DNA from: Escherichia coli
GTDB taxonomy: Bacteria; Pseudomonadota; Gammaproteobacteria; Enterobacterales; Enterobacteriaceae
DNA length: 64,000 nucleotides
Assembly (NCBI RefSeq): GCF_001677475.2
Contig: NZ_CP015229.1
Reading direction: 5' to 3' (one strand)
Shown: positions 5,503 through 35,535 of the stretch, piece by piece
How the letters are laid out: each line of letters opens with the position of its first letter
Numbering within the stretch: position 1 is the first letter of the stretch
Made by a program: the position numbers and the translations under genes
The notes under the pieces: generated by a model
Seen by the model: only the letters and a program-made list of their open reading frames with translations
Database searches by the model: none
What the model was told of the DNA's origin: nothing

Positions 5503-6261
5503 ATGTTCAGTTTGTTTTCGTTAACTGCCGGAGCAAATGTGCGCTGGCATGATTTACCTGGTCAGGGTATTCCTGTTGTTTTTATTCATGGACTTGGCTG
5601 TTCCTCTTCTTATGAATATCCACGGGTTGTTGCAGATCCTGTATTTGGTGGACAACGAGCGATATTGATAGATCTCCCTGGATATGGATTCAGTGATAAG
5701 CCTAAAGGATTCGATTACAGCATATCCCATCAAGCTAAGGTTGTTATTGAAGTAGTAGAAACCTTAAATCTCTCACAGTTCCATATTTATGGTCACAGTA
5801 TGGGGGGAAGTATTGCGATTGAAGTAGCCAGACAACTACATGAGAGAACAAGAAAGCTTGTGGTTTCTGAGCCTAATTTTCACTCTGGTGGAGGTACCTA
5901 TAGCCGTAAGATAATAGAGAAGCCAGAAGCAGAGTTTATTTCGCATATATATAATGAATTACTGGAGTGTGAAACATCCCCATGGAAAGGTGAACTCCAG
6001 AATGCAGCCCCATGGGCAATATGGCGAGGAGCCAAAAGTCTGGTTGATGGAACCACTCCATCATGGCGAGATATATTCCTTAATCTGTCCTGTTCACGAA
6101 CACTAATTTTTGGCGAACAATCATTGCCAGATAATGATTTCCAGTATATAAAAGAATCAGGAATATCTGTTGCAATAGTGCCAAACGCCGGACACTCCAT
6201 GTCATGGGAAAACCCATCAGCACTGGCCGAAATTTTACACACAGAATTTTATAAAGAGTAA
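5503..6261 (+). CDS. Alpha/beta-fold hydrolase (probable esterase/lipase-type serine hydrolase); AT-rich cargo gene
   Basis: 252-aa ORF; N-terminal VVFIHGLG, nucleophile elbow GHSMGG, C-terminal NAGHSMSW candidate His; codon usage visibly more AT-rich than the flanking phage genes. Confidence 0.6.
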   Translation: MFSLFSLTAGANVRWHDLPGQGIPVVFIHGLGCSSSYEYPRVVADPVFGGQRAILIDLPGYGFSDKPKGFDYSISHQAKVVIEVVETLNLSQFHIYGHSMGGSIAIEVARQLHERTRKLVVSEPNFHSGGGTYSRKIIEKPEAEFISHIYNELLECETSPWKGELQNAAPWAIWRGAKSLVDGTTPSWRDIFLNLSCSRTLIFGEQSLPDNDFQYIKESGISVAIVPNAGHSMSWENPSALAEILHTEFYKE

Positions 6262-6882: not shown

Positions 6883-6942
6883 CAGGCAGAATTGCCGGAG
6901 TAACAAAAAAGCGATAGATTACGCGCGGGTGCCTTTCGGCTG

Positions 6943-7206
6943 ATGGTCGGAGGGAATACCCGAAGGCCAGATGTGGAAAGGCCCCGGAAAACATCTCTGT
7001 TTAACCGAGGCCCTAACCGCATTACCTTGACAAGTGAAAGGTTAGCGCCTCTCCGGAAAAGGAGCAAGTGCTATGTCGCAAAAATCGCTTACAGCCATCA
7101 CGTTCTGCGTGACGGCAATCCTCATCATCTGGATGCTACACGGTTCGCTGTGCGAAATACGGATGAGCTTCTGGGGAGCGGAGTTTGCGGCGTTCTTACA
7201 GTGTAA
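6943..7206 (+). CDS. mok-like overlapping reading frame (translational coupler for hok)
   Basis: 87-aa ORF in a different frame that overlaps almost all of the hok-like ORF, as in hok/mok/sok loci. Confidence 0.35.
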   Translation: MVGGNTRRPDVERPRKTSLFNRGPNRITLTSERLAPLRKRSKCYVAKIAYSHHVLRDGNPHHLDATRFAVRNTDELLGSGVCGVLTV

Positions 7207-7213
7207 GCAGTAA
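7073..7213 (+). CDS. Hok/Gef-family type I toxin (46 aa, single transmembrane helix)
   Basis: Hand translation ATG 7073 to TAA 7211: MSQKSLTAITFCVTAILIIWMLHGSLCEIRMSFWGAEFAAFLQCKQ; hydrophobic N-terminal helix followed by SLCEIR and AAFL motifs; RBS GGAG upstream; too short for the ORF track. Confidence 0.6.
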   Translation: MSQKSLTAITFCVTAILIIWMLHGSLCEIRMSFWGAEFAAFLQCKQ

Positions 7214-7302
7214 GGAAACCGCGACGGGGGAGCAATCCCCCGTCAATCGGTTGCCAGGGTAAGGTCGATAAGGCACCCTATCTCACAGACATGAACAACA
7301 AA

Positions 7303-7335
7303 CCCGCAACGTAAAAACTGCGGGTTTTCTTTTTG
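7303..7335 (+). terminator. Intrinsic terminator downstream of the hok-like locus
   Basis: Inverted repeat cccgca...tgcggg followed by ttttcttttt; an additional perfect hairpin gacggggg-agcaat-cccccgtc lies at 7221..7244. Confidence 0.45.
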
Positions 7336-7482
7336 GTGTCCTCACCGACTTGAAACAGTGATCAGACTATAAGACAAAGCCCACAATGTAGCTGGCTTAC
7401 TCCCCTCCCCCCCCACACTAAATGTGGACACATCGTGGAATGAAGAGATATAAAACATTATAAATCAATTGGTTATTGAAAG

Positions 7483-7508
7483 AAAAAAGGCCGCAGAGCG
7501 GCCTTTTT
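7483..7508 (-). terminator. ihfA intrinsic terminator (hairpin flanked by A/T runs on both sides)
   Basis: aaaaaaggccgcagagcggccttttt immediately downstream of the ihfA stop. Confidence 0.55.
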
Positions 7509-7520
7509 AGTTAGATCAGA

Positions 7521-7820
7521 TTACTCGTCTTTGGGCGAAGCGTTTTCGACCCGGCTTTTTAACTTCTGCCCGGGTCTGAAGGTCACCACGCGCCGTGCTG
7601 TAATGGGAATATCCTCGCCCGTTTTCGGGTTACGTCCCGGGCGTTGATTCTTATCACGCAGATCGAAGTTACCAAAACCAGAGAGTTTCACCTGTTCGCC
7701 GTTTTCCAGAGCGCGACGGATCTCTTCGAAAAACAGTTCAACCAGTTCTTTGGCATCCCGCTTGCTAAGCCCAAGCTTATCAAACAGATATTCTGACATT
7801 TCAGCTTTTGTAAGCGCCAT
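7521..7820 (-). CDS. ihfA: Integration host factor alpha subunit
   Basis: 99-aa [91 protein letters not shown]... Confidence 0.95.
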
Positions 7821-11252: not shown

Positions 11253-11421
11253 TTAGAGCCTATCCCATCAGGCTATTTTACTTGCCATTTTGGTCCCGGG
11301 CAGTGCTCGAAATTCTCACGTACTTAAATACGCTCCGGTTTCTCCGCGCTGGCCGTGTCCAGACTGGCTGCGACAATTACACCTGATGAGACAGGCTTTT
11401 TATTTTTCAAAACGCGCATAC

Positions 11422-11448
11422 AAAAAAAGCCTCCACTGGGAGGCTTTC
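11422..11448 (-). terminator. pheST attenuator terminator
   Basis: Minus-strand hairpin agcctcccagtggaggct followed by a T-run, between pheM and pheS. Confidence 0.6.
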
Positions 11449-11493
11449 AGGCGCTGTTTTCCGTTTCTCTTCTCACGCGCTAGCCTCCTGGAG

Positions 11494-35413: not shown

Positions 35414-35535
35414 CCACAAAACTATGCAAATTCAATATATTGCATGAGTCGAATAGGCCTGACAGGCGTAGCACGTCAGACGGTGTAACCTTTGTCATCA
35501 ACCCGCCTCTTTTTTAATCGCTCCCCGCCTGTTAC

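Follow-up and report, generated by a model that had tools for sequence, protein, structure and literature searches.

On the plus strand of the window, by which we mean the whole stretch of 64,000 nucleotides of the Escherichia coli contig NZ_CP015229.1 that was analysed, a hok toxin gene is found at 7073..7213 and encodes a peptide of 46 amino acids (MSQKSLTAITFCVTAILIIWMLHGSLCEIRMSFWGAEFAAFLQCKQ). The original prediction had assigned this ORF to the Hok/Gef type from the letters alone, and profile searches bear the assignment out, with Pfam HOK_GEF (PF01848) matching residues 7-44 of the peptide to positions 5-42 of its 42 (E=4.8e-7, 29.7 bits) and PHROG phrog_251 matching the full-length peptide (E=1.3e-22). 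Read by eye from the sequence, residues 6-22 (LTAITFCVTAILIIWML) are uncharged and charges are found at position 4 and at positions 28-45, which is the arrangement expected of a Hok/Gef protein, a small peptide (about 50 aa) in which a single hydrophobic helix at the N-terminus is followed by a polar C-terminal portion. Over its entire length the toxin can be aligned with HokA-E, R1 Hok, PndA and SrnB, and all of the positions emphasized in the logo of a recent survey of Hok homologs (M1, C16, T18, L30, C31, E32 and E41) are kept in it, as M1, C12, T14, L26, C27, E28 and E37, respectively.

In a large protein collection 67 relatives were found, nearly all of exactly 46 aa, originating from E. 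coli, Shigella, Salmonella and Klebsiella; their source name is 'Hok/Gef family protein', and for most of the 46-aa relatives PF01848 is precomputed. An alignment of 17 relatives displays G24, C27, E28 and a C-terminal AE.AA.LQCK as invariant, and AEFAAFLQCK is invariant across the 46-aa cluster, its cysteine aligning with the C-terminal cysteine of HokA and HokB. The C-terminus, at first regarded as unusual, is therefore a signature of the cluster and not an anomaly. When codon differences among the loci are examined, the synonymous share amounts to 37% in the hok frame vs 12-16% in the other two frames, and the coding constraint thus sits in the hok frame.

Among the classical paralogs, HokA of E. 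coli K-12 is the closest (43% identity), sharing the WM..SLCE core and a C-terminal AAFL.CK with its cysteine, whereas identities with HokB, HokC, HokD, HokE, R1 Hok, HokW and PndA range from 22 to 30%. The HokA equivalog NF007290 is also the best NCBIfam match of the toxin, though a weak one, since its 34 bits fall short of the cut-off of 89, and the Hok subfamily model NF007279 likewise remains below its own cut-off (21.6 vs 73 bits); the toxin falls beyond the range of both models. In contrast to HokA, which belongs to the core chromosome, the toxin of the window is four residues shorter and is carried by a prophage, and its being a HokA orthologue is ruled out by the NCBIfam cut-off together with an identity of only 43%. 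A PADLOC search returned no match for Hok.

Position in the prophage

Identity between the window and E. coli genomes with an empty site (K-12) starts only at about 7479, at the ihfA terminator, which indicates that the hok locus is prophage cargo and neither a junction nor a chromosomal feature. Judged by this comparison, the locus is carried about 140 bp inward from the right end (about 7478) of a P2/P88-like (Peduoviridae) prophage inserted at the ihfA terminator, and its earlier placement at the prophage-chromosome junction needs to be corrected by that distance. The remaining right-end DNA of the prophage (7336..7478) is absent from empty-site E. coli and is partly common to a Salmonella prophage at the same site, and the first chromosomal sequence is the ihfA terminator itself (7479..7510, minus strand), the probable location of the att core. 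The same junction was found in about 296 E. coli genomes. Upstream of the hok locus lie the genes for the tail sheath, a gpD-type tail protein and ogr.

The Salmonella P2-like prophage at the same ihfA-terminator site (loci L090 and L091, 1-3141) displays the order gpD, ogr, hok, ihfA, pheT, with a Hok only 61% identical to that of the window. Given the same site and order, both the integration site and the position of the cargo are conserved across genera.

A 252-aa ORF at 5503-6261 of the window (plus strand), between the gpD-type tail gene and ogr, gave weak PHROG matches to esterases/lipases only and no match in PADLOC. A different gene on the opposite strand occupies its position in E. 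coli 2D, and this site accordingly resembles a slot in which the cargo of the prophage varies. On the minus strand, a match to the Rfam sRNA STnc540 was found at 7427-7579 (42.8 bits vs a gathering score of 38); it spans the 3' end and terminator of ihfA together with about 50 nt of prophage DNA, so its distal part is not chromosomal here. Other Rfam matches above gathering in the window are the Phe leader of the pheST operon, expected beside ihfA (11420-11544, minus strand), and the ES036 (CssrF) sRNA (35418-35460, plus strand).

The predicted hok mRNA and antisense RNA

A putative weak hok promoter is located at 6892..6920 (plus strand), with the -35 element TTGCCG at 6892-6897, a 17-nt spacer and the -10 element TAGATT at 6915-6920. 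All homologous loci have either TAGATT or TAGAAT as their -10 element, and the -35 element is variable. A promoter scan of the locus at a threshold of 9/12 returned no site, for hok or for the antisense RNA, and for this reason both promoters were placed by conservation. The predicted full-length mRNA would extend from 6927 to 7335 (plus strand, about 409 nt). The Rfam alignment suggested along with the original prediction gave a match of the hok/sok leader RF01794 on the hok strand, at 6927-7086 and over the full model (1-157), with E=1.1e-9, though its 48.4 bits are below the gathering score of 59. Folding of 6927-7335 yielded a minimum free energy (MFE) of -170 kcal/mol (z=-7.2) and a helix between the 5' end (6927-6941) and 7262-7280.

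In order to assess this structure by covariation, the window was aligned with 14 diverged loci (copies from P88, Chuche, Stx-type phages, Salmonella and Klebsiella), a consensus was obtained with RNAalifold, and pairing partners slid by 1-3 columns served as a control. In the full-length consensus of these 15 loci 96.3% of cells are paired, vs about 40% in the slid controls, and 23 compensatory pairs are observed vs 0-6, including pairs in the extension of the helix between the tac and fbi boxes, in the hairpin after the stop codon and in the terminator. The tac box (6927..6941, plus strand; 5' end GGGUGCCUUUCGGCU) has two alternative partners, the fbi box at 7262..7280 (plus strand; ending in GGUCGAUAAGGCACCC), which would lock the full-length mRNA, and a ucb-like box at 6976..6985 (plus strand; GAAAGGCCCC), to which it would turn after removal of the 3' end. 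The tac-fbi pairing (helices 1-3) is kept in 14 of the 15 loci, and in helix 3 all four pairs change on both sides.

When the 3' end is removed in silico (fold of 6927-7262), the 5' end pairs with 6976-6985 and a hairpin forms between 7007-7016 and 7042-7051. In the alternative tac-ucb fold 95.8% of cells are paired over the 15 loci, vs 33-52% in the slid controls. Columns 73 and 74 of the tac box covary with both fbi and ucb, the ucb pairs being CG in nine loci and UA in six for columns 73/116, and GC in nine and CG in six for columns 74/115. Covariation of the same tac columns with both partners is characteristic of two structures that exclude each other, and two such folds are established for the hok mRNA of R1. 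The hairpin of the truncated mRNA (7007..7051, plus strand; GAGGCCCUAA.../...UUAGCGCCUC; helix 5, 97% paired) is of the type targeted by Sok and has its counterpart in the GaGGC...GCCuC hairpin of the Rfam consensus.

Immediately downstream (7051..7064, plus strand), an anti-Shine-Dalgarno CUCC (7051-7054) is followed by the Shine-Dalgarno of hok, GGAG (7061-7064), 8 nt before the ATG; the arrangement CUC(U/C)CC-N-GGAG is found in all loci and is paired in the MFE structures. Directly 3' of the hok stop codon lies a stable hairpin (7222..7245, plus strand), which had been proposed at 7221..7244 and was recovered within a few bases: its perfect 9-bp arms (7223-7231/7236-7244) enclose a 4-nt loop, a tenth pair is added by 7222/7245, and five of nine pairs of this helix (helix 15) display compensatory change. 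A downstream box (7247..7259, plus strand) forms in the full-length fold a dcb-like long-range helix with 7025-7037 (helix 7), in which five of 11 pairs are compensated. The T-run terminator announced at 7303..7335 is likewise present, as an intrinsic terminator of the hok mRNA at 7300..7335 (plus strand) with a stem at 7300-7308/7319-7327 followed by TTTTCTTTTT up to 7335, and three of the four pairs of helix 16 show compensatory change. The terminator scan called no terminator on the plus strand and flagged terminator-like sites on the minus strand only, because the 10-nt loop exceeds the 8-nt limit of the scan. This terminator is common to the P88, Chuche and Salmonella loci and is absent from the Stx-phage copies.

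In Stx-converting phages, and in other lambdoid ones, a Lom/OMP gene is followed by a 46-aa relative (for instance L093, 770-910, and L096, 1501-1641), which is catalogue entry 72_1589 or an 89%-identical variant; the homology of these copies to the window ends just past the fbi box, which implies a different terminator there. In one Salmonella hok copy (L087/L088, about 1318-1420) the -10 element and the tac box are replaced by unrelated sequence and the rest of the locus is conserved; to judge from this replacement, the copy is probably 5'-truncated and silent.

An antisense RNA had been expected from the Hok assignment, and a putative Sok promoter can be placed on the minus strand at 7039..7067, with the -35 element TTGCTC (7067 to 7062), overlapping the Shine-Dalgarno of hok on the opposite strand, a 17-nt spacer and the -10 element TAACCT (7044 to 7039), which matches the consensus at only three of six positions. 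The promoter element is kept in all 15 aligned loci, with TATCCT as the -10 element in two of them and TTTACT and TTGCCT as variants of the -35 element. The same antisense layout was obtained in the R1 leader, used as a control (reverse complement TTGCGC-17-TATCCT). On the minus strand, the Sok gene is accordingly predicted to run from about 7032 to 6970 (6970..7032), the transcript itself being a prediction: an RNA of about 60 nt, with approximate ends, whose 5' tail is a variable stretch of about 20 nt that differs between loci, followed by a conserved GC-rich hairpin (GGGCCUCGG...CCGGGGCC) and UUUCC. The predicted RNA folds with -26.4 kcal/mol (z=-4.0), and its hairpin (helix 6 of the consensus) is preserved across the loci by compensatory changes.

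Tandem 46-aa hok modules are found in Salmonella, three of them directly after an ogr gene in L094 and likewise in L095 (505-645, 1003-1143 and 1501-1641 in L094) and in others two (L085, 1501-1641 and 1991-2131; L086, 1501-1641 and 1995-2135). The predicted 5' tails of Sok differ between these tandem copies, a difference that might prevent cross-talk of paralogous antitoxins.

The working model and the overlapping mok-like frame

Taken together, the Hok-family peptide, the structured mRNA and the predicted antisense promoter agree with the core of the original prediction, a type I locus of the Hok family, and we consider it highly probable that the window carries an intact hok/sok-type toxin-antitoxin module, borne as accessory cargo by the prophage and working in an R1-like manner; in this model the RNA ends, the 3' processing, the action of Sok and the biological role are deduced by analogy. 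The weak promoter would give rise to the stable mRNA of 6927-7335, in which pairing with the 3' fbi box would lock the 5' tac box and the ribosome-binding site of hok would be sequestered, while a short and unstable Sok would be made from the conserved promoter on the opposite strand. Slow trimming of the mRNA from its 3' end would remove fbi, and the freed 5' end would then pair again with the internal ucb box and expose the target hairpin, to which Sok would bind, leading to destruction of the mRNA; in the R1 paradigm the activation is exonucleolytic and the Sok-mRNA duplex is cut by RNase III. If synthesis of Sok ceased, by loss of the prophage, by the transcription shut-off imposed by an infecting phage or by induction of the prophage, Hok would be made, and the 46-aa peptide would insert in the inner membrane and kill or lyse the cell. 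Candidate roles, which can only be inferred at this point, are prophage addiction, exclusion of other phages and help with lysis. The hok/sok system of R1 has been reported to exclude other phages.

A further element of the R1 system, mok, had been suggested in the form of an out-of-frame ORF that overlaps hok at 6943..7206 (plus strand). This ORF of 87 codons does exist in the window, but as a conserved mok it does not stand, and on comparative grounds it is probably not a functional one. In the copies of P88, Chuche and the Stx phages, and in most of those of Salmonella and Klebsiella, the frame is interrupted by a stop at -46 or -16 and lacks a start codon. The set used for this test included 80 viral loci, all of which encode an identical Hok and are consequently of no use for covariation and useful for mok: of the 83 loci with identical Hok, 24 lack any ATG, GTG or TTG in the mok frame, and the stop of the frame is shifted back and forth, from +80 to +131, by a synonymous TGT/TGC change in Cys27 of hok. 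In no frame is an upstream start codon conserved in the leader, except for the hok ATG and a GTG within the tac box. As a control, the same method recovers the canonical mok of R1 (GAGG, 7 nt, ATG at -58, 70 codons). A clear mok is also missing from three of four other plasmid Hok loci, and its absence can therefore not be claimed as unique to the 46-aa cluster; in the loci compared, the want of a conserved mok is taken as a real feature of the cluster, though not one peculiar to it. In a plasmid hok locus of Atlantibacter (L101, 244-459), the ATG found where mok would begin shares the reading frame of hok and gives an annotated, N-terminally extended Hok of 72 aa.

Since no conserved mok is found, the R1 scheme, in which Sok blocks translation of mok and thereby that of hok, is not transferable as it is. 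For a Sok that acts without mok, the simplest guess is that decay of the Sok-mRNA duplex would prevent synthesis of Hok. We may further speculate, tentatively and with the odds rather against it, that the 46-aa cluster (cluster 72 of the survey) represents a mok-less branch of hok/sok in which Sok acts through decay of the mRNA or by blocking its refolding, with no translational coupling, and in which the position next to ogr and att reflects a specific role for the prophage. If this were true, the conserved place of the module beside ogr and att in P2/P88-like prophages, with occasional tandem arrays whose Sok tails diverge, would point to a role such as addiction, phage exclusion or the timing of lysis.

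The opposite reading, a genuine mok as in R1, would require that the frame be translated from ATG 6943 or from TTG 7027, with Hok coupled to it and Sok blocking it. In the window the frame is indeed open across the start of hok, and most loci with identical Hok possess the TTG, which is at -46 in the loop of the target hairpin, in sequence complementary to Sok; moreover, recognizing mok sequences is known to be difficult, as the survey authors state (bioRxiv 10.1101/2025.08.07.668861). Nevertheless, besides the missing starts and the toggling stop described above, no GGAG-like Shine-Dalgarno precedes either ATG 6943 or TTG 7027, the ATG falls within the stem formed by tac, at 16 nt from the 5' end, and no start is found at the position homologous to that of mok in R1 (GAGG+7). 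We therefore regard a functional mok in this locus as unlikely, and the R1-like module with no conserved mok is the reading retained here.

Decay is another possibility to be weighed, as most chromosomal hok loci of K-12 have been reported as inactive, and some relatives of the present locus are damaged, such as the L087 copy with neither tac box nor -10 element. A silent relic of this kind would not be expected to have an intact ORF with the identical peptide in 83 loci, synonymous changes enriched in the hok frame, or -10 boxes, tac, ucb, fbi, Shine-Dalgarno/anti-Shine-Dalgarno and terminator all conserved with compensatory changes; the module is, in addition, present in phage genomes deposited as complete, and its peptide is reported to be toxic, so that we judge a relic to be very improbable. 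Finally, short ORFs are frequent by chance (19 in 1 kb) and this one has only 46 codons, but a fortuitous ORF with hairpins in a non-coding prophage tail is refuted by the peptide profile matches, the Rfam match, the conservation across genera and the covariation of the RNA, and its probability is negligible.

Related systems and earlier records

The intact hok/sok-type module proposed here resembles hok/mok/sok of R1 in having a membrane toxin of the same family, in the layout of its mRNA (5' tac, ucb, Sok-target hairpin, sequestered Shine-Dalgarno, hok, post-stop hairpin, fbi and terminator) and in a predicted antisense promoter at the same position, with its -35 element overlapping the Shine-Dalgarno of hok. 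It differs from R1 in that the toxin is only 28% identical and has 46 aa instead of 52, in the want of a conserved mok, in its location on a prophage and not on a plasmid, and in an RF01794 score below the gathering threshold.

Another prophage-borne hok/sok module is hokW-sokW of the Stx2 prophage Sp5 (Takada et al. 2021, PMC8621323), which was experimentally shown to be a toxin-antitoxin module of type I whose Sok RNA vanishes on prophage induction, upon which Hok aids lysis (PMC8621323). HokW is, in contrast to the toxin of the window, a peptide of 51 aa of the HokD/C type (MKQQKAM...YESEK; sequence 35_712), and the two share 28% identity. The possibility that the locus is hokW-sokW itself, suggested by phage annotation, was ruled out, HokW being a different 51-aa peptide that, according to its primers, starts with MKQQKAM. 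Some Stx-type phages bear a 46-aa relative of the window toxin (e.g. Lyz12581Vzw, L093).

The locus had been taken as unannotated, and it was absent only from the ORF track that accompanied the original prediction; tracks with a floor of 60 aa miss genes of this class. The identical protein is RefSeq WP_000078916.1 ('Hok/Gef family protein'), annotated in E. coli 2D between the ogr/Delta gene and ihfA, the same ogr-hok-ihfA arrangement as in the window. The module is 94-98% identical in P88, Chuche and other Xuanwuvirus/Peduoviridae (94-96% in P88 and Chuche), where it is annotated as 'MokW-like host killing'. This label, borne also by the P88 gene, goes back to hokW-sokW, derives from the name of the PHROG family only and is misleading, given the different size of HokW and its low identity.

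The exact peptide is also entry 72_1621 (construct LRP137, Shine-Dalgarno GGAGC) of a high-abundance cluster in the 2025/26 Hok survey (Escalera-Maurer et al., bioRxiv 10.1101/2025.08.07.668861), and the 46-aa peptide and GGAGC Shine-Dalgarno of the window are the same as those of 72_1621; the closest known counterparts of the toxin are cluster 72, WP_000078916.1, P88 gp52 and phrog_251. In that survey 42 of 45 Hok homologs were toxic upon induction with arabinose, the exceptions being 19_179, 60_1482 and 69_1540 (bioRxiv 10.1101/2025.08.07.668861). As 72_1621 is not among the named exceptions, the exact peptide is reported by others to be toxic when overexpressed, in an assay in which the CDS was overexpressed from a plasmid and not from the native locus (bioRxiv 10.1101/2025.08.07.668861), and the test by induced expression named for the ORF in the original prediction has thus in effect been carried out by others.

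The toxin locus is consequently already known: it is present in RefSeq and in phage records, it belongs to a PHROG family, and its peptide has been catalogued and reported as toxic. A search of the literature on hok together with P88, Peduoviridae, Xuanwuvirus or ogr returned only irrelevant papers, and the genome paper of E. coli 042 mentions only a plasmid hok/sok. With regard to cluster 72, mok, Sok and mRNA structure were outside the analysis of the survey (bioRxiv 10.1101/2025.08.07.668861) and are added here. What is new is small, an RNA-level description of this cluster comprising the full tac/ucb/fbi switch, a predicted Sok gene that can be placed and the absence of a conserved mok. 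From the closest known loci the window differs by a few nucleotides, synonymous ones included. Among 5426 complete E. coli genomes, the 518-bp region is found in 1552, and at least 80% of it in 1001; the best E. coli match is 99.0% identical over 518 bp.
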